From: Methanothrix sp.
Lineage (GTDB): Archaea > Halobacteriota > Methanosarcinia > Methanotrichales > Methanotrichaceae
Reading direction: 5' to 3'
NCBI GenBank assembly: GCA_963682135.1
Contig: OY821645.1
Coordinates: 2,624,001 to 2,688,000, forward strand
Length of the DNA: 64,000 bases
Numbering within the stretch: the first letter of the stretch is position 1; each line of letters opens with the position of its first letter. Under the pieces are notes generated by a model. That model made no database searches and was not told the origin of the DNA. It saw nothing but the letters and a program-made list of their open reading frames with translations. Positions 51,467 to 62,482 of the stretch are shown here, one piece after another. The translations under genes were made by a program, and so were the position numbers.

Positions 51467-52948
51467 TCATCTGCATATGCTCACCAGTCGACTGACTCCG
51501 TCGCTTGTTATCATGCCTATTAACCTTTGATTGCCATCCACCACCGGAAGAGCCGAGATATTATGCTCATTCATGCGCTTGGCGGCTCGCTCGATTGGAT
51601 CTTCCTGAGCGGAGATGACCACCTTGCGGGTCATTATCTCCTCCAGCAGAGTGTACTTCAAGGCCACAGCCTTGGATACATCCCAGGCGGTGACAATCCC
51701 AACCAGCTTTCCTTCTGCGTTGATTACGGGCAGGTGAGTTACGCCCTCGTTCATCATGATTCCGGCTGCCTCCTCTACGCTGGAGCCCTGTTGGATGGTT
51801 ACTAGCTCTTTGATCATCACATCACCAACTGATCTGCGGGAGAGGAAATTTTGGATGGTATAATTCATCTGCCCGGATTCCAGGAGAAAAGCATCATGCC
51901 CGTAGTTTGATCGGATTGTGCAATGACGCACATCGATATCATTGGCACTGATAGCCTCAGCGATCTCTTTGCACTGGTAAGGCGGATAAAGCCAGTCTGA
52001 GCTAATGGATATGACCAGGAACTTTGTCTTGGCGCCCTTAAAGGCCTCAGCCAAAGAGAGAGTGCCATTCTTTGTCAGGTCGAAGTAGTCTATGGCCTTG
52101 GTGATGTAAAGATAGGAATTGGCATCGAAGCGCTTCACAAAGGCATCACCGTGGTAGCTCAGATAGCTCTCAACCTGAAAGTCCAGAGATGCGAGATCAA
52201 AGCCGAATTCTTTTTTGCCCTGCAAGCGCCGACCGAACTTCTGATGCATGGACTCGTCGCTGAGGTATGTGATATGCCCGATCATCCTGGCCAGAGAGAG
52301 ACCGCGAGCTGGAGGAGTTCGTCCGAAATAGTTGCCATTGTTCCAGTCCGGGTCTGAGGTTATGGCTCTGCGCCCCACCTCATTGAAAGCAATCTGCTGG
52401 GGTGAGGAGTAGGCGCTGGTGGCTATGGGCACGGCGAGACGCACCATCTCCGGGTAGGATATGCACCATTGCAAAACTTGCATTCCGCCAAAGGATCCGC
52501 CAATGACTGCAAATAGCTTATCTATACCTAGGTGATCCAGGAGCCTCTTTTGGACGTCCACCATATCTTTCAGCGTGATGAAGGGAAAGTCCAGGCTGTA
52601 AGGCTTTCCAGTCCTGGGATTAAGAGAGGAGGGACCTGTAGTCCCTTTGCATCCGCCCAGTACATTGGAGCATATGATAAAGAATTTATCGGTATCCAGA
52701 GCTTTACCTGGGCCGATGATAATGTCCCACCAGCCTGGTTTCTCTTCATTCTTATGCCAGCCACCAGCATGAGCGTCTCCGGAGAGAGCGTGGCAGATGA
52801 GGATGGCATTGCTCTTTTCTTTATTCAGAAGGCCATAGGTCTCGTAAGCAACTCTGGCCCCGTCGAGCCGGCCGCCATGCTCCAGGACTATCTCTTCTGG
52901 AATATGATAGCATTGAGTCTCAACTTGGCCCGCAGATTCGCGTTTCAT
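51467..52948 (-). CDS. metX: Homoserine O-acetyltransferase with C-terminal CBS pair
   Basis: CHALSGD.H, GWW...IGPG, GGSFGGM, GHDAFL; CBS motifs LPV....LVGIVT.WD. Confidence 0.92.
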
Positions 52949-52963
52949 TTGAAATCTCTCTAA

Positions 52964-53605
52964 TTAAGGATAAACAATCATCTTCAAGGCGGTTTTATCT
53001 GCCGTAACTATGTTATTTTCATCCAGAGGAACCTCTTTAACTATTCCACCGGCAACCTCAACAGCCAGGAATTCTGTGTAATGCACCAGTGAAGAGACAA
53101 TCACGCTGTCACCCTTCTTAACAATGGACTGAGTTATAGCCTGAAATCCTCTACGGGCACCGGGGACGACCCGAGCCTGATCCATGTTCAGGAACTTGGC
53201 CAGATCCTGGTGGAACTCCTCAATTGGAGGACGGGTGATTTTATCGAGCCGGAAGGGCTTTCGGCAGTAGTCGCAGGTAGAGTAACCATCTCCATAAGAT
53301 ATGATGGCCTTGCGCGCCTCGGGCGTAAGCCTGCCCGCCGCCTGGATGGAGTGGATGTTTATGAACTCCTCTTCCCTGGTCCTTGGTTCGAGCTTTCCTA
53401 CCCTGTTGCAGGCTGGTTTGCCTTCACCTTTCTCCAAGTCGGAGATGATGCTCTTAATCCTCGTAATAGTATTGGAAAAGTCCTCTTGCTGCACCTCATC
53501 AAAACCTGCCGGTAGAGATTGCCTGAAGATCTCTCTGATATCCTCCAGGGCAAAGAGTGCCTCATATGTTTTCTGAATCTGTAGACTCTTTATGGATTCG
53601 CTCAC
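52964..53605 (-). pseudogene. pscS: Truncated Sep-tRNA:Cys-tRNA synthase (SepCysS) with N-terminal extension
   Basis: FINI..IQA.GRLT.EARKA...YGDGYS.CD.C, ARV..GAR.G, HYT; stops at 213 aa, before the PLP-lysine region. Confidence 0.82.
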
Positions 53606-54016
53606 CTAATTTGGCCTCCAAAAACCATTATTCTGCATATCCAACAAATTTTCGTCAGTTTGACCCTTGTGAATCGACTTGTCAAAACTCGACGGCTAAC
53701 TTATTTAAGAACTGAGATTGAGGCAAAAATTACCTTGAGCAAGACTATTTCATCTTGCTCTGGGCTCAAGAAAGGTTTCTTCCGGTTATGACGATATTGG
53801 CACATTGCAGGAGTAACGGCGCAAAGAAAGGCATTGGCGGGCGGCTTTGGACTGAATGCCAGGGGCACATTTTTGTGGCTCTGGTGATCATGGCTTTGGC
53901 GACAACCATGATCTCAGGCCTGGCCCTTTCCTGGCACATGAAGACGAGGCCGCTGAGCTGAAAGGTTTGGGAGAGACAATACCTTTGCACAAGAAAATAG
54001 GATCTATTCTTGGCGG

Positions 54017-54244
54017 TTATAGCAGATCTTGCAGCTCTTCTCTGCTAATCCCCGCATCTTCCAGGATCTGAATAAGAGTCCCTCTGGCTACTTCTTGATT
54101 GCTATGGTAAGGAACTGTGACTCTTCTTTTCGTTTCCGGATGGGCAAAGATGTAATGGCTGCCAGTAACTCGCCTCAATACGAATCCATTCTTCTCAAGA
54201 ATCGCTATGATTTTTAGAGGAGAAAGAGATGGCAGCTTAGGCAT
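54017..54244 (-). CDS. hicA: HicA toxin
   Basis: GF...R..GSH..F.H......TVP.H.....GTL..IL..AG. Confidence 0.92.
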   Translation of the reverse strand: MPKLPSLSPLKIIAILEKNGFVLRRVTGSHYIFAHPETKRRVTVPYHSNQEVARGTLIQILEDAGISREELQDLL

Positions 54245-54479
54245 GGGCCTCCACGGTCAGCCTGCATTCGATGAGTTCCTCATCCGTAGGAACAGCCTCG
54301 CCATCTTCGATGAGGCTCTCGACATATCCTGTGATTGCATCCCTAGCCATTTCGATGGCCTCTTCCACGGTCTTCCCGTAAGTGACGCATCCGGGAAGTG
54401 CCGGGACCAGCACGGTATAGCCACCTTCGGGTTCCTTGCGCAGATTAATTCGATAGCTCAGAGTTCTCATGCCTAACAT
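54237..54479 (-). CDS. hicB: HicB antitoxin (short, no DNA-binding domain)
   Basis: EGGY.V.VP.LPGC.T.G.T.EEA..MA.DAI. Confidence 0.92.
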   Translation of the reverse strand: MLGMRTLSYRINLRKEPEGGYTVLVPALPGCVTYGKTVEEAIEMARDAITGYVESLIEDGEAVPTDEELIECRLTVEAHA

Positions 54480-54664
54480 AAACTCTTGATAATGAAATAT
54501 ACCTTGCGGCTATCATGGCATACTCTTAAATGATGGTGGGGTTGGCAGAGGCTCCGCTCGCAAGCGCGGGCGCTTGGGGTCGGGCATGGAATAAAGCCGA
54601 GTAATAGAGCATCTCCATCTTTGCACTTGTTCACTCAGAAGATCGCAAAATTCATTACTTTGCA

Positions 54665-55720
54665 TTGAGATCCCTCATTAAGATGGACAAATTTGCATGT
54701 ATCAGCACGGCCTTTGCGGGAATCGGAACAGCCTATGCAATAAGAAACTATATAAAAACACTGAAGGACTATTTGGAACCGACACTAATTCGCACTAAAC
54801 GAAGGATTCAAAACAGATATTTTGAATACGATATGGATCAGGATGGTGATATTCTGTTATGGAGGGATCTACTGAAAAAAAAGTTCAGCAACCCAACTTC
54901 AAAAATATTAGTGGAACCTGATCGACCTTTGAGAGTTGGTGACATGGTTGAGCTTAATAACGCTAATATCACGAGGTGGGTTCCTCTTTTTCCTGGAAAA
55001 AAATATAGCAATGAAGGCGAAATAATTAGCAAGAAACATGAAACAGAATTTCCGAATTATCACGAATATGGCTTAGAGGAAGAATTGATATCAAGAAACA
55101 ATGCCCAAGTATTATCTGGGTGTGCTACTACCCGAATCTTGCCGTTTAATAAGGAAGTACTGCTATGTGCTTCTGGAGAATTATGTGAAACTGGTATTCC
55201 AATGATTTTAACTGAACGGATGTATTCAGATACACTTCAAAGTATGATTTCAAAGGATGGCGGTGCAAAGGGAAAAATAATAGGAACGTTAGTGGAGCTA
55301 CCTGGTGAATGGAAGGATCGTTTAGATAGAAATTCCACAAATAAATTAGATAAAAATATTTATGGTTTGCCACGTCTATCATTAATAGTAAATCAAATCA
55401 GCCAGCTTGGTACGCCAAGTTTGGTTTTTGCAGATGCTTGGACCCAATTTATCAATTCTGATCTTGGGTATTCATCAATGATAAATTCCCTCTTTAAACC
55501 AACTCTTCTTGATGATATCGATAATTCGATAAATATGCTCGTGAATTACGAAAAATTTCTTGAAAGTAGCTTGATTGGAGGAGATTGGGATATTGATGTA
55601 GAGTTTGATGAGACGAGAAATTGGTTTGCACCTGGTAATTATAAAATTTTTAATCTGAGTGAAGTAGATCTATTTAGGATATACTATATGAATCCGTGGG
55701 GCAGAATGAGAATTTCTTGA
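54665..55720 (+). CDS. AT-rich hypothetical protein
   Basis: 351-aa ORF, visibly AT-richer than neighbours; no family recognised. Confidence 0.6.
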   Translation: MRSLIKMDKFACISTAFAGIGTAYAIRNYIKTLKDYLEPTLIRTKRRIQNRYFEYDMDQDGDILLWRDLLKKKFSNPTSKILVEPDRPLRVGDMVELNNANITRWVPLFPGKKYSNEGEIISKKHETEFPNYHEYGLEEELISRNNAQVLSGCATTRILPFNKEVLLCASGELCETGIPMILTERMYSDTLQSMISKDGGAKGKIIGTLVELPGEWKDRLDRNSTNKLDKNIYGLPRLSLIVNQISQLGTPSLVFADAWTQFINSDLGYSSMINSLFKPTLLDDIDNSINMLVNYEKFLESSLIGGDWDIDVEFDETRNWFAPGNYKIFNLSEVDLFRIYYMNPWGRMRIS

Positions 55721-56024
55721 AAACTCATTATTAATTTTATCGTAATACCCGATGCTCGCATCGGTGATAAAGTGCATACGTATTCAACTTAGGCTTGGTA
55801 TCAATGCATCTTGGTTCCAGCTTCATGCGGCGGTGCCTCGGATGACTACCAGCTTACTGTGTGGGTGTACCGCAGCGGTTTCACTTGCGGATATATTTAA
55901 TATTTTTCCATCATTATTTCTTGAGCCTCTTAGTAGTATTATCATTTTGTCTCCCCCGTCCTTGCCGCAATCCAAACCTTCATTACCCCTTTCCCACCGT
56001 CCATCACAGTTTAGAGACCTCCAG

Positions 56025-56243
56025 ATGACCGCGCCTGCACCAAGCATCGACTACGCCGCCCTGAAGTCCGGCGGCATCATCATGCAAAAGGACGATGATT
56101 TATTCGCCCTACCCCTGCGCCTGCCCGGTGGCTGCATCGCTTCCAACCTTCTCCCAAAAATAGACGAGGTGGCCAAAAAATGCGGTCCGGTGGAAGTTCG
56201 CCTCACCACCAGGGCAGAGATGGAGATTCCCTGGATCAAATGA
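56025..56243 (+). pseudogene. Fragment of a nitrite/sulfite-reductase ferredoxin-like half domain
   Basis: LK.GG...QKD...F...LRLPGG......L..I..VA.K.G..EV.LTTR...EIP.I, then stop at 72 aa. Confidence 0.65.
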
Positions 56244-56557
56244 TGCAAACCTGATCGTGGGCAGAAATGAAAACAAGAACAATATGCTCAGCATGCCGGC
56301 GAAGGTTGGCGATTACCTGTTTGCTCTGGCTAGCATCATCGTTCCGAACGCTGTTGGCAAAGGCTCATTTTCTCCCCACCTCCTGCATCTCGCCTGCCGC
56401 ATTATGGCCCGCTACTCTGACCGATTGGGGGAAAAGAATGCTGATATTTCCTGCCGGAGACTTCCCAAGAGCGATGAGGAGACGATTTGTGAATGATCTG
56501 GTTGTGGCCGATTCGATATATAGAGACTGAGAATGCGGCAAGAAAAAATTATCAGCG

Positions 56558-56854
56558 TCAACTGCCAGCTTGTGCCTCAGACTTGATCCTGATCTCTGAT
56601 TTCATGCGCTCCAGCATGCCCTGTTCCATGTTGGCCTTCTCGCAATGCGACGCCACCTTGGGATTGCAGTTCATCAAGACATCCATGGCCATATTTGCCA
56701 GAGAATTGCATCCGCAATCTTCCAGATCGGACAAGAACAGAGACATGCGATTGGCAAATTCCCGGCATTTCTCATAGTTTGCGATGGCATCGCTATGCAA
56801 TTTGCATAATAATTCGATTTCTTCTTCCTTCTCCGCCCAATTTATATCGTCCAT
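56558..56854 (-). CDS. Small Cys-containing helical hypothetical protein
   Basis: 98-aa ORF with GGAGG RBS, divergent from the tRNA-cysS unit. Confidence 0.6.
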   Translation of the reverse strand: MDDINWAEKEEEIELLCKLHSDAIANYEKCREFANRMSLFLSDLEDCGCNSLANMAMDVLMNCNPKVASHCEKANMEQGMLERMKSEIRIKSEAQAGS

Positions 56855-56949
56855 AGCCCTCCGGCAAGTGAAATAATGATGAACGTCAATTATCTTTGCC
56901 GCAATCTACAGTTATTTGTGCTTCCAGTGAAGATGAATGTATTGGACGT

Positions 56950-57020
56950 GCCGGGGTGACTGACCGGTTAAGTGCGCGGCTGCAGACCGCGAGAATTGGG
57001 TTCGACTCCCAACCCCGGCC
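56950..57020 (+). tRNA. tRNA-Cys(GCA) or tRNA-Cys-like element (atypical C73, C15/A48)
   Basis: GCCGGGG/CCCCGGC acceptor; ACT/AGT D stem; CGCGG-CT GCA GA-CCGCG; TTGGG-TTCGACT-CCCAA. Confidence 0.85.
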
Positions 57021-57022
57021 TT

Positions 57023-58468
57023 ATGTTGATCAATAGCACCATGAGCGGCAAGAAGGAGCCTTTCTTGCCTATTCATGACAATCGCGTTAACCTCTTTGTA
57101 TGCGGTCCAACCGTTTATGACAATTCGCATATCGGCCATGCCAGAACCTATATCTTCTTTGATGTGGTGGCACGCTACCTCAAGCACATTGGTTTTAGCG
57201 TCTTTTATCTGCAAAATATCACCGATGTGGACGACAAGATAATTGACCGGGCAGCCCTGCAGGGCATCTCGCCCCGACTGCTGGCACGCACCTTCGAAGA
57301 GAAATACCGTGAGGACATGCAGGCATTGGGCGTGACCAGCATCAACTACTATGCCCGCGCCTCAGAGCATATTCCTGAGATCATCAGCCAAATTAGCAGG
57401 CTGATTGAGAAGGGTTTTGCCTATGAGACACAGACCGGTGTGTACTTTGACGAATCCCGTTTCAAGGACTTTGGAAAGCTCTCTCATCAGAGCCTGGAAG
57501 ACCTGGAAAAACACAGGATTGAGCCGGATCCGACCAAGAGAAATCCTGGGGACTTCTCGCTGTGGAAGAAGCGGCAGGACGGCCCGGAGGTCACCTGGGA
57601 CTCGCCCTGGGGAAAGGGCAGACCTGGTTGGCATATCGAGGACACGGCCATCACTGAGAGCTATTTCGGGGCGCAGTACGATATTCATGGCGGAGCCATG
57701 GACCTGATCTTTCCTCACCACGAGGCTGAGATCGCCCAGATGGAGGCGACATCCGGCAAAAAGCCGCTGGTGAGATTCTGGATGCACACCGGCTTTCTCA
57801 ACGTCAACGGCGAGAAGATGTCAAAATCGTTGGGCAACTTCACCACCATCCGGGAGATGCTGGCGAAGTTCGATGCCGATTCGTTCCGCTTCTTTGTGCT
57901 CTCCTCCCATTATCATAGCCCGATCGACTTCTCAGAGTCGGCTTTAGAGCAGTCGAGAAAGAGCCTGGAGCGCATTCGCCAGGCGGCAAAGGCCATCGAG
58001 GAGGAACTGGAAAGGACGCCACAGTCTGCGAACGAGGCATCCCTGAAAGACGAAGCAGATGATGCGGGAATGGCTGAATTCAAGGCCAAGTTTCTCGATT
58101 CGATGGACAACGACTTCAACACTCCCTATGCCCTGAAAGCCGTCTTCGAGCTGGTAAGAGAGGTCAACCGCCGCATAAACGAGAGGACCATCTCCAAAGA
58201 AAGCCTGAGCGAGGCAGGACGACTGCTGGATGATTTCGGGCGAATACTCGGCATCAGCTTTTCGCCTGCAAAGTGCGGGCACTCTGAAGGTTTCGGGAAT
58301 AACCAGGATCTTACTGGCAATCTAATTGAACTGTTGATTGATGTAAGGCAGAAACTGCGAGATAAAAAGGATTGGGCTCTGGCCGACGAGATCAGAAACC
58401 GGTTAAACGAGCACGGCATCGTCCTGGAAGACGCTAAGTCCGGCGGAGGAAGATACTCGATCAAATGA
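57023..58468 (+). CDS. cysS: Cysteine--tRNA ligase
   Basis: VCGPTVY...HIGHAR, NITDVDDKII, GRPGWHIE, HGG..DL.FPHHE.E, KMSKS; start MLINSTMSGKKEPF matches the usual CysRS N-terminus. Confidence 0.96.
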   Translation: MLINSTMSGKKEPFLPIHDNRVNLFVCGPTVYDNSHIGHARTYIFFDVVARYLKHIGFSVFYLQNITDVDDKIIDRAALQGISPRLLARTFEEKYREDMQALGVTSINYYARASEHIPEIISQISRLIEKGFAYETQTGVYFDESRFKDFGKLSHQSLEDLEKHRIEPDPTKRNPGDFSLWKKRQDGPEVTWDSPWGKGRPGWHIEDTAITESYFGAQYDIHGGAMDLIFPHHEAEIAQMEATSGKKPLVRFWMHTGFLNVNGEKMSKSLGNFTTIREMLAKFDADSFRFFVLSSHYHSPIDFSESALEQSRKSLERIRQAAKAIEEELERTPQSANEASLKDEADDAGMAEFKAKFLDSMDNDFNTPYALKAVFELVREVNRRINERTISKESLSEAGRLLDDFGRILGISFSPAKCGHSEGFGNNQDLTGNLIELLIDVRQKLRDKKDWALADEIRNRLNEHGIVLEDAKSGGGRYSIK

Positions 58469-58603
58469 TTATAATTGGGGTCAATATTGCCGCAATCGCA
58501 GACTTGATAATGGATCAGGTTGCAGGACAGATTGGTGAAATGAAAATGAGGGATCGACTTTGCAGAAACCAAAAATGAATCGACCAGCACGAAGATAGAG
58601 CAC

Positions 58604-58825
58604 TTGCCACCATCGGCAAAGCTTGTCTTTAAGGTGCTGGAATCAGGCAGCCTTCTCACGCAAAAAGATATCGTCGCCAAGACCTATCTTCCGCAAAGGA
58701 CCGTAAGGTATGCCCTGAACCGATTGAAGGAACAACATATCCTTCAAGAGCGCTTCTATTTCCAGGATGCGCGCCAGAGCCTCTATGGACTGAGTCCCGA
58801 AACCCAGGAGGTGGTGGCAGAGTAA
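58604..58825 (+). CDS. Small winged-helix DNA-binding protein (start uncertain)
   Basis: LPPSAKLV.KVL.....LTQK.I...T.LP.RTVRYAL.RL...DARQSLY. Confidence 0.75.
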   Translation: MPPSAKLVFKVLESGSLLTQKDIVAKTYLPQRTVRYALNRLKEQHILQERFYFQDARQSLYGLSPETQEVVAE

Positions 58826-59063
58826 ATGACAATGCAATTCACTCATGGTATTTATCAGAAGTTGCAGCTCCACCTTTCTAGCCTTATCATTTATGTCTTA
58901 GTATTCGTCTTCGCCTTCAAGAGCTCCATTTGCCAAGAAGCTTTCAGAGCATCTACGGTTAGTGATTCAGTCCTTCATCCGATCTCGTTCACCAAGGATA
59001 TGGCAATAAAAAATGACTGCCCAGATTTATACCCGGGCGAATGACAATATGCCGATAGCAGCT

Positions 59064-60563
<1,500 letters not shown>

Positions 60564-60582
60564 TTAAATGAGAGGTTTACTT

Positions 60583-61512
60583 ATGGGAAGGATCTATGAA
60601 GATCTAACCAAGACCATTGGCAATACGCCTCTGGTAAGATTGAACAGAATCACGAAGGGCCTGGATGCTACCGTGCTGGTAAAGCTGGAATCATTCAATC
60701 CCTTGAGCAGCGTCAAAGACCGAATCGGCGTCTCCATGATTGAGGCAGCAGAAAAGGCGGGCCATATCAAGGAGGATACCATTATCCTTGAGCCTACTAG
60801 CGGCAATACCGGAATCGCTCTGGCTTTTGTCAGCGCCGCCAAGGGCTACAAGCTGACCCTCGTCATGCCTGAAACCATGTCTATTGAGCGGCGAAAGCTG
60901 CTCAAGGCTCTGGGCGCTGATCTGGTCCTCACTCCAGGAAGCCAGGGAATGAAGGGAGCAGTGAGTACGGCAGAAGAAATGCTTGTTAAAGATCCTCGCT
61001 TCTACTACATCCCCCAGCAGTTTAGAAATCCGTCCAATCCCGAGGTCCACCGCAAGACCACGGCAGAGGAGATCTGGCGGGATACAGACGGAATGGTGGA
61101 CATTCTCGTAGCTGGTGTGGGCACCGGCGGAACCATAACCGGAATTGCTGATGTCATAAAGTCCAGGAAGCCTGGCTTCAAGGCAGTGGCAGTCGAGCCA
61201 TCTGCCTCCCCGGTTCTCTCCGGAGGCAAACCGGGACCGCACAAAATCCAGGGATTGGCGCCGGGATTCGTGCCCGACGTTCTCAAGCTCGACCTGGTGG
61301 ATGAGATAGTCAAAGTGGAGTACGAGGATGCAGTAAAAACTGCTCGCCGCCTGGCAAGAGAAGAAGGCATCTTGGTCGGCATCTCCTCAGGAGCCGCCGC
61401 CTGGGCTGGACTGGAGCTGGCAGCAAGACCGGAGAATAAAGGGAAGCAGATTGTGGTAATCCTCCCCGACACCGGAGAGCGCTACCTCAGCACCGAGCTA
61501 TTCGAATTCTAG
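60583..61512 (+). CDS. cysK: Cysteine synthase A
   Basis: [40 protein letters not shown]. Confidence 0.95.
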
Positions 61513-61525
61513 GGGTGGGCAGGAG

Positions 61526-62482
61526 ATGAGCATCAGAGAGGATATCCGGACCATCTTTGCCAAGGACCCCGCTGCCAAGTCTACCCTAGAAGTAATCACC
61601 TGCTATCCGGGGCTGCATGCCATCTGGATGCACCGGATCTCTCACTTCCTCTGGGCTCATAAACTCTTTTTTCTAGCCAGATTCAGCTCCCATATCAGCC
61701 GATTCCTGACAGGCGTCGAGATCCACCCCGGAGCAAAAATCGGCAAGCGGTTCTTCATCGATCACGGCATGGGGGTGGTCATAGGCGAGACAGCCGAGGT
61801 AGGAGATGATGTGTTGATGTACATGGGAACGGTCCTGGGCGGAACCAGTCTCGACAAAGTCAAGCGCCATCCCACGGTCGAGGACCGGGTGGTCATCGGC
61901 GCTGGCTCCATCATACTTGGACCGATCACCATAGGAAACGGCGCCAAGATCGGAGCAGGTTCGGTGGTGGTTCGGTCTGTGCCTGCGGGAGCAACTGTGG
62001 TAGGTGTGCCTGGAAGAATCGCCGAACCGGAATGCCCGGCAACAGGAACGGATCTGAACTATGCCAATCTGCCCGATCCCATGCTGCGAGTGGTAAGCAG
62101 ACTGCTCGACCGGCAAAACCGACTGGAGGAGCGGCTGCGCTCTCTGCAAAAAGCTATGAGCGGGCCGGAGGCGGAGATGCTGGTGGCCCAAATGAAAAAA
62201 GAAGAGGAGATTCGAGAGGCTTTGCGGGATGTTCTCGACCCTGAGGTGGGCATAGATATCGTGGACCTGGGACTGATCAAAGATATAATCATTCGCAGCG
62301 AGGATACTGTGGAGGTGAACATGGTGCTGACCTCCCAGGTTTGCCCCATGGTCAGCCACCTCACAGAGCAGGTAAAAAGGCGCGTGAAAGGCCTCAACGG
62401 CATTCGACAGGTTGAGGTTAGGGTCTTAGATGAGCCCTGGAACTGGGAATACTTCGTCAAGCAGCAGAAATCGAGGGCTTAG
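61526..62482 (+). CDS. cysE: Serine O-acetyltransferase fused to a C-terminal DUF59 (SufT/PaaD-like) domain
   Basis: DPAA, YPGLHA, EIHPGA.IG...FIDHG.GVVIGET, KRHPT; then [20 protein letters not shown]...LT...CP...PW. Confidence 0.92.

Follow-up and report, generated by a model that had tools for sequence, protein, structure and literature searches.

The 64,000-nucleotide stretch of the Methanothrix sp. genome that was analysed here (the window) carries a tRNA-Cys(GCA) gene at 56950..57020 (+) that abuts cysS, the gene for cysteinyl-tRNA synthetase (CysRS), at 57023..58468 (+). The tRNA is the only one that ARAGORN predicts in the window. It is 71 nt long with no encoded CCA, and the Rfam tRNA model (RF00005) matches it over its full length (1-71) with 53.4 bits against a gathering score of 29 (E 3.5e-10). 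Read from the sequence, pairing is complete in the acceptor stem (7/7), the anticodon stem (5/5) and the T stem (5/5), and the anticodon loop CUGCAGA places G at position 37. The D stem consists of A10-U25, C11-G24 and U12-A23 with a G13/A22 mismatch, which is also present in the canonical tRNA-Cys of the same genome. The D loop ACCGGUU gives C15, the variable loop has 4 nt (AGAA) and ends in A48, and position 59 is C. The discriminator is C73 at 57020, followed by TT and then by the ATG at 57023. An initial annotation of this locus had reported the stems, the GCA anticodon, G37, C73, C15/A48, A10-U25 and the ATG 2 nt after the discriminator, and the sequence, ARAGORN and Rfam bear out each of these features. 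It had offered two interpretations, a poorly chargeable tRNA mimic through which CysRS represses its own synthesis, or a tRNA whose release by tRNase Z creates a leaderless cysS mRNA.

The cysS product (481 aa) is a complete CysRS with the Pfam domains tRNA-synt_1e (394 bits), DALR_2 and CysS_C, it matches CysRS entries of the PDB with E 9e-133, and its gene is the only CysRS gene of the genome. The N-terminus MLINSTMSGKKEPF aligns with the M(L/I)K(I/V)YNT... starts of about 75 CysRS homologues, and the next in-frame ATG of cysS, at 57041, is not kept but reads TTG or ATC in relatives. Because of these two observations, the ATG 2 nt after the tRNA is judged from the alignments to be the real start codon. 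The 30 nt preceding it are tRNA and end in the acceptor strand CCCCGGCC and the TT spacer (57021..57022, +), which is the predicted 5′ end of a processed cysS mRNA. No Shine-Dalgarno (SD) sequence was found before the cysS ATG, as the upstream bases are those of the acceptor strand. Neither a promoter nor an SD sequence would fit between the tRNA and cysS, in agreement with the initial annotation, which saw no space for a ribosome-binding site or a separate promoter. Among the 44 predicted tRNAs of the genome, this is the only one that convincingly abuts an open reading frame (ORF). Three further candidates for a tRNA-ORF fusion (Ile-AAT at +7, Thr-CGT at +6 and Pro-GGG at +13) were rejected, since they look like spurious or mis-started ORFs.

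To assess how well this arrangement is conserved, 41 related genomes were searched at the DNA level and GTDB species genomes were scanned with guidance from the protein, which together yielded 23 distinct Methanotrichaceae loci with an intact tRNA. In these loci the tRNA adjoins cysS on the same strand, and C73, the spacer and the ATG are present in 23/23. The U of the canonical tRNA-Cys identity set is thus replaced by C at position 73 in the window and in every one of these loci, which contradicts the view, raised in the initial annotation, that C73 might be a sequencing error or a strain-specific decay. The spacer is 2 nt long (TT, TC or GT) in 21 of the 23 loci and 1 nt (T) in the other 2; it begins with T in 22 loci and with G in 1. 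For a covariation analysis upstream of cysS we aligned 26 tRNA sequences (11 from Methanotrichaceae and 15 from a Methanobacteriaceae clade; 21 distinct rows), omitting identical duplicates, the variant L085, the Methanobacteriaceae-clade loci L047, L061 and L086, and decayed copies. In this alignment 99.8% of the cells of the cloverleaf pair, and 8 of the 20 base pairs change on both sides in a compensatory manner, distributed across all four helices. The covariation score was reached by 0 of 500 shuffles, and slid controls paired at no more than 47%. Invariant positions are U8, A14, G18G19, U33, the GCA anticodon (window and 26/26 aligned sequences) and U54, U55, C56 and A58 of the T loop. 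The tRNA is about 85-100% identical to that of the window in the aligned Methanotrichaceae, with protein identities of the accompanying CysRS down to about 62-66%. Because the stems covary and the shuffled and slid controls fall short, this pattern indicates that the tRNA fold is under selection and is neither a relic nor a sequencing error.

CysRS is encoded in 38 of 105 genomes of the family (23 of 64 when only high-quality genomes are counted), and the C73 tRNA together with a cysS start is likewise found in 38 of 105. The two lists have 37 genomes in common. Of the two genomes outside the shared list, one (G105) has its C73 tRNA at a contig end and the other (G116) is discussed below. Near-complete genomes such as G005 and G086 carry neither CysRS nor the C73 tRNA. 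The tRNA and cysS are therefore inherited together as an optional unit in Methanotrichaceae. Several copies of this cassette occur in G041 and G042, and decayed copies were found elsewhere. In L019 (G020:C5) a second copy has the anticodon GTA and a 63-aa ORF remnant, in L020 (G012:C1) a second copy likewise retains a 63-aa ORF remnant, and in L032 a deletion fuses the T arm of the tRNA to codon 56 of cysS. Judged from these remnants, extra copies of the tRNA and cysS decay as a unit.

To place the cassette among wider relatives, 80 CysRS loci from the protein-guided scan were inspected for an upstream tRNA-Cys of the same orientation at a distance of up to 210 nt, and 37 of them have one. In the 14 Methanotrichaceae loci of this set the tRNA has C73 and the spacer is 1-2 nt. 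In the Methanobacteriaceae clade, 16 loci also have a C73 tRNA, separated from cysS by an AT-rich spacer of 29-178 nt, and two (L040 and L053) have a U73 tRNA with spacers of 209 and 79 nt, respectively. These cysS genes with a separate upstream tRNA are preceded by an SD sequence, and 16 of the 18 tRNAs, whose spacers range from 29 to 209 nt, are homologous C73 tRNAs. A G73 tRNA with a spacer of 21-23 nt and an SD-like motif is found in two Methanospirillum/Methanoregula loci (L098, L100), and a U73 tRNA with a spacer of 11-38 nt in three loci of Aenigmatarchaeota and Methanophagales. None of the 16 bacterial loci has an upstream tRNA-Cys. A class-level search added 11 loci (L152-L162) of one Methanosarcinales-type genus with an A73 tRNA-Cys directly upstream of cysS on the same strand; an SD-like motif precedes the GTG or ATG start there, and in the four loci examined the start lies about 25-30 nt downstream of the tRNA. 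The same search found no tRNA upstream of cysS in four Methanosarcinaceae-type loci of other genera (L163-L166), which thereby differ from the cassette. In general, non-U73 tRNA-Cys genes seem to be physically linked to cysS.

In a quick maximum-likelihood tree of CysRS (77 rows, after four sequences shorter than 400 aa had been dropped), the Methanotrichaceae and Methanobacteriaceae enzymes form one clade (98 in the Shimodaira-Hasegawa-like approximate likelihood ratio test), within which the enzymes of the fused loci share one branch (94). A tRNA-CysRS pair that is common to two distantly related methanogen families and patchy in Methanotrichaceae points to horizontal transfer of the cassette. 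Because the C73 homologue stands apart upstream of sister CysRS genes in Methanobacteriaceae, we regard 56950-57020 as a genuine tRNA gene and not as a mimic confined to a leader. On the same comparison the tRNA predates its fusion to cysS, which weighs against a purpose-built mimic.

The cysS-linked tRNA is not the sole tRNA-Cys of the organism, an alternative that the initial annotation had allowed for. The window belongs to a genome of 3.04 Mb in one contig, and two of its tRNAs are tRNA-Cys(GCA). The second one, the separate canonical U73 tRNA-Cys that the initial annotation had suggested looking for, lies at C1:2030175-2030246. Across the family, canonical U73 tRNA-Cys was detected in 84 of 105 genomes, and within the genus in 53 of 58, mostly with 100% identity and both with and without cysS. 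The cysS-linked tRNA is thus a second, accessory tRNA-Cys isoacceptor. Three odd ARAGORN calls in the same genome, Ile-AAT (87 nt, C1:513077-513163), Phe-AAA (80 nt, 2062393-2062472) and a 92-nt tRNA of undetermined type (2601380-2601471), may contain introns or be false positives.

The genome also encodes two routes to cysteinyl-tRNA. Besides the single CysRS, SepRS and SepCysS are present, with scores of 751 and 556 bits, respectively, that exceed the curated cut-offs. The part of PMC9976931 that deals with SepRS recognition lists G15, G37, A47, A59 and U73. The canonical tRNA-Cys of the genome has this full set, and the cysS-linked tRNA keeps only G37 of it, with C15, no position 47, C59 and C73. 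Additionally, U73 is reported to be recognised by SepCysS in the relevant passage of PMC9499178. To relate position 73 to the presence of the phosphoserine route, SepRS was sought in a few, related genomes. In this sample it is present in 4/4 C73 genomes tested (that of the window and three Methanobacteriaceae), and it was not found in 5/6 U73 genomes of the same CysRS clade, namely four Methanobrevibacter genomes and that of L040. The tRNA-Cys genes of Methanobrevibacter were located with a covariance model; a DNA search with the Methanobacteriaceae tRNA returned only tRNA-Ser T arms. Because C73 tracks the presence of SepRS, the safest reading is that C73 would mainly keep the cysS-linked tRNA away from SepRS/SepCysS.

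On the protein side, only three columns of the CysRS alignment (150, 164 and 288) separate the C73-linked group from the others. Column 150 is F in 27/28 C73-linked enzymes, Y in 37/37 outgroup enzymes and N in both G73-linked enzymes. H164 was rejected as specific to C73, as it is shared with enzymes of Nitrososphaerota, Bathyarchaeia and Aenigmatarchaeota, and F288 was rejected because it is clade-wide. The literature searched did not yield the residue of E. coli CysRS that contacts U73. As a side observation, all 75 CysRS of the subfamily, from archaea and Patescibacteria, read WHIEDT with Asp at residue 207 (P0001, window ~57641-57643), where the best PDB match, 8qhp, reads WHIEC. The Cys of WHIEC is presumably a zinc ligand in E. 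coli CysRS.

A conserved promoter-like box was found only upstream of the tRNA, about 35 nt from it. In the window this TATA-like box is TTATTTGTG at 56912..56920 (+), 38-30 nt before position 1 of the tRNA; in relatives it reads GTATTTGTG or GTATTAGTG, and its position as well as its sequence is conserved. Archaeal TATA boxes lie about 26-27 nt from the transcription start. The start is predicted about 7 nt before the tRNA. A further motif, TTGCCGC at 56896..56902 (+), lies about 50 nt upstream of the tRNA at a fixed distance in most of the 23 Methanotrichaceae upstream regions and is absent or altered in L010, L031, L033 and L044. A role as a regulator site or as part of a shared divergent promoter region is conceivable. 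The intergenic region in which the motif lies is shared by a divergent 98-aa ORF (56558-56854, -), for which Pfam gives no match.

Transcription across the junction was examined in RNA libraries. A 265-nt metatranscriptome contig of a relative (run X16) begins 86 nt ahead of the tRNA, spans it and includes at least 105 nt of cysS, and in run X2 two contigs that are identical or near-identical to the window cover 56986-57049 and 57020-57175. Low-depth contigs thus bridge the tRNA-cysS junction in two runs and give a weak indication of co-transcription. The start of one X2 contig at 57020 was rejected as an RNA end, because an exact 30-nt overlap with the neighbouring contig suggests an assembly-graph break. 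A third run (X1) contained only conserved pieces inside cysS with unrelated flanks and is uninformative on the junction. X19 was set aside as RNA evidence on account of its unspecified library type.

Taken together, we favour, with somewhat better than even confidence, the interpretation that the window tRNA is a CysRS-linked C73 isoacceptor without the SepRS identity elements that is co-transcribed with cysS, and that a tRNase Z cut would leave an effectively leaderless cysS mRNA with a leader of 1-2 nt. The optional, horizontally shared cassette of tRNA-Cys and cysS would supply a direct CysRS route, and the resident SepRS/SepCysS route would use the canonical U73 tRNA-Cys encoded elsewhere. 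C73, C15, the missing position 47 and C59 would deprive the cassette tRNA of determinants reported for SepRS/SepCysS; this tRNA therefore probably does not enter the phosphoserine route and is charged instead by the accompanying CysRS. In Methanotrichaceae the spacer between the tRNA and cysS seems to have shrunk to 1-2 nt. Transcription from a single promoter, about 35 nt before the tRNA, would yield a tRNA-cysS co-transcript, from which RNase P and tRNase Z would free the tRNA. Cleavage by tRNase Z after C73 would leave 5′-UUAUG, and the cysS mRNA would be translated as a leaderless message. A folded tRNA 2 nt from the AUG would be expected to block initiation until it is removed, and processing would therefore gate cysS translation. 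In this way, CysRS expression would be linked in a one-to-one manner to the production and maturation of the tRNA that belongs to this enzyme. The fixed junction of 1-2 nt in 23 loci argues for such processing. This is the second interpretation of the initial annotation, and it is favoured by the spacing, the box found only upstream, the lack of an SD sequence, a tRNase Z encoded in the genome (355 bits) and the bridging contigs; the processed 5′ end itself is a prediction.

A more far-reaching version holds that CysRS synthesis is gated by the maturation of its own tRNA and that CysRS, or the charging state of this tRNA pool, acts on the tRNA part of the precursor and tunes the tRNase Z cut. 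This would amount to a feedback switch in an orthogonal CysRS/tRNA-Cys(C73) pair that operates in parallel to SepRS/tRNA-Cys(U73) on the same codons. We consider it a speculative extension with a low probability.

Several observations weigh against the interpretation that we favour. In G116 (L150, C46 ~1430-1500) an intact cysS of 470 aa is preceded by no more than the 3′ half of the tRNA, comprising the T arm, the 3′ acceptor strand and C73, with TC-ATG following; unrelated sequence takes the place of the 5′ half, and no other C73 tRNA was found in this genome. Retention of cysS therefore does not always require a complete tRNA. F150 also occurs in the enzyme of L040, which is paired with a U73 tRNA, and in 3/4 Methanobrevibacter CysRS whose best tRNA-Cys has U73; for this reason we do not claim a C73-specific adaptation of CysRS. 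The enzyme may accept either pyrimidine at position 73. The genome of L053 has a U73 tRNA beside cysS, yet SepRS is present. The SepRS identity elements used here come from species other than Methanotrichaceae. The RNA evidence consists of assembled Logan contigs of depth 4-10, which cannot show ends and may include carried-over DNA. Finally, an SD-like 5-mer precedes about 20% of the long ORFs of the genome versus 6% in a control window. By this rough count, SD-independent initiation is not exotic in this organism, which permits such a start for cysS and does not show it.

One alternative to the favoured interpretation is an autoregulation like that of thrS, in which CysRS would bind the tRNA-shaped 5′ part through the GCA anticodon and the acceptor end and block the ribosome or tRNase Z. 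A complete anticodon arm of the cognate type 2 nt from the start codon, a junction that is invariant in 23 loci and the steric hindrance to initiation that a tRNA folded at this distance would be expected to cause are all compatible with it. On the other hand, the locus shows no feature specific to a mimic, as every feature of the tRNA core is kept and all four helices covary. In Methanobacteriaceae the same tRNA has a gene of its own, at a distance of 29-209 nt from a cysS with an SD sequence before it, and so predates the fusion. Related tRNA-Cys genes with A73 or G73 are situated about 21-30 nt ahead of cysS genes with SD-like motifs. We therefore regard this regulation as unlikely, although it may add to the processing model. 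The poorly chargeable mimic with CysRS self-repression, as the initial annotation had put it, finds no support in view of the full covariation, the core nucleotides, the free-standing homologue, the co-inheritance and the separate U73 tRNA with SepRS. Because the cassette tRNA is real, linked to CysRS and coexists with a U73 tRNA-Cys and SepRS, C73 is better read as a partition between two Cys-tRNA routes.

Two independent transcripts would also account for the arrangement, namely the tRNA alone and a primary leaderless cysS mRNA from a promoter inside the tRNA gene, in the AT-rich segment from the variable loop to the start of the T stem about 25-30 nt before the ATG. Positions 43-50 of the tRNA (GAGAATTG) do lie at the distance from the ATG that is expected of a TATA box. 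However, this segment does not resemble a TATA box and differs from one fused locus to another (GAGAATTG, GACAATCG, GTTATTCG, GATATTCG). The unfused Methanobacteriaceae tRNAs are just as AT-rich at these positions (GATACTTG), so that the segment appears to be an inherited feature of the tRNA rather than an adaptation to the fusion. As RNA-library contigs also pass through the junction, an internal promoter is quite improbable. The remaining explanation, a non-functional relic in the form of a tRNA pseudogene or an assembly error before cysS, could draw on the decayed or truncated copies L019, L020, L032 and L150 and on C73 itself, which breaks the U73 rule given as universal for tRNA-Cys in the pertinent part of PMC8762117. 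It is hardly credible, given that C73 and the cloverleaf are kept in 23 Methanotrichaceae and 16 Methanobacteriaceae-clade loci, that stem changes are compensatory and that the tRNA is better conserved than the synthetase beside it.

The surroundings of cysS (window 51467-62482) form a cluster of sulfur and cysteine/methionine metabolism. Downstream, Pfam family membership identifies a Cys/Met pyridoxal phosphate enzyme (59064-60554, -), a cysteine-synthase-like PALP protein (60568-61512, +) and a hexapeptide acyltransferase fused to an FeS_assembly_P domain (61526-62482, +). Upstream lie a NIR_SIR ferredoxin-like ORF (55752-56243, +) and a gene with abhydrolase and CBS domains (51467-52948, -), both assigned by Pfam. 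From their predicted functions, the neighbours of cysS would suit a module that makes use of free cysteine. A 213-aa ORF without any Pfam match (52964-53605, -) lies about 3.5 kb away from the tRNA and cysS. Its similarity to the SepCysS model TIGR02539 (133.7 bits) is confined to positions 2-122, the N-terminal third of the model, and it may encode a free-standing protein similar to the N-terminal domain of SepCysS.

Parts of this arrangement have counterparts in known systems. In mitochondrial tRNA punctuation, excision of tRNAs by RNase P and tRNase Z makes leaderless mRNAs. Here, too, a tRNA abuts an ORF, and its excision would set the mRNA 5′ end 0-2 nt from the AUG. Unlike in mitochondria, a single locus of an archaeal chromosome is concerned (1 of 44 tRNAs), the downstream gene encodes the synthetase of the tRNA itself, and processing is predicted. 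In E. coli, the thrS operator contains a mimic of the tRNA-Thr anticodon arm in its leader. Both loci place a structure like the cognate tRNA beside the start codon of a synthetase gene, but the window has a complete, covarying tRNA gene that is free-standing in relatives instead of a mimic confined to a leader.

A division of tRNA-Cys isoacceptors has been described for Methanosarcina mazei, where core-region determinants split them between SepRS and CysRS (Hauenstein and Perona 2008, as presented in the relevant parts of PMC9976931 and PMC8762117). As in the window's genome, two Cys-tRNA routes coexist and each enzyme prefers different isoacceptors; unlike here, all M. mazei isoacceptors keep U73 according to these parts. 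Non-U73 tRNA-Cys is known with C73 from some Methanobacterium, with G73 from Methanospirillum/Methanoregula and with A73 from Methanolobus/Methanocella, as summarised in a section of Mukai et al. 2022 (PMC8762117, citing Perona et al. 2018). That section adds that these tRNAs are accompanied by changes in the acceptor-binding region of CysRS and that the two systems may be orthogonal. Our assignments of taxa to position 73 agree with those given there, and the window tRNA is homologous to the Methanobacteriaceae C73 tRNA, with a CysRS that is sister to theirs. The passages of PMC8762117 on these tRNAs mention neither Methanothrix/Methanotrichaceae nor a tRNA-cysS linkage or a fusion at 1-2 nt. 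In the literature searched we found no description of a tRNA-Cys fused to cysS, or of a non-U73 tRNA-Cys in Methanothrix/Methanosaeta; Perona et al. 2018 may list part of this. What our analysis adds is that Methanotrichaceae belong to the C73 set and that the non-U73 genes lie directly upstream of cysS.

As a mobile pair, the cassette resembles pylT-pylS (pylTSBCD, in the relevant part of PMC9499178) and the selC* tRNA-Cys with cysS* (in that of PMC5389517), in which a tRNA of non-standard identity or with unusual identity elements is encoded beside its synthetase gene and moves with it. We liken the co-occurrence of tRNA-Cys(C73) and cysS in 37/38 genomes to these cassettes. In contrast to both, no new amino acid or codon meaning is involved here, since both tRNAs read Cys codons with GCA, and the distance of 1-2 nt to the ORF implies a processing-dependent translation. 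Non-U73 tRNA-Cys/CysRS pairs and tRNA-synthetase cassettes are thus known already, and a probable punctuation of the kind seen in mitochondria is the new twist.

If the favoured interpretation is true, the locus would be an archaeal chromosomal case in which excision of a tRNA creates the leaderless mRNA of its own synthetase, a logic known mainly from mitochondria. It would also offer a natural substrate for studying the site choice of tRNase Z and the translation of 5′-monophosphate leaderless mRNAs in methanogens. The linkage of C73, G73 and A73 tRNA-Cys genes to cysS in the sampled lineages makes the proposed orthogonality of SepRS and CysRS directly testable and provides candidate natural orthogonal pairs. 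With this locus, the Methanotrichaceae, which are important acetoclastic methanogens, join the lineages that have two Cys-tRNA routes on two tRNA-Cys species.

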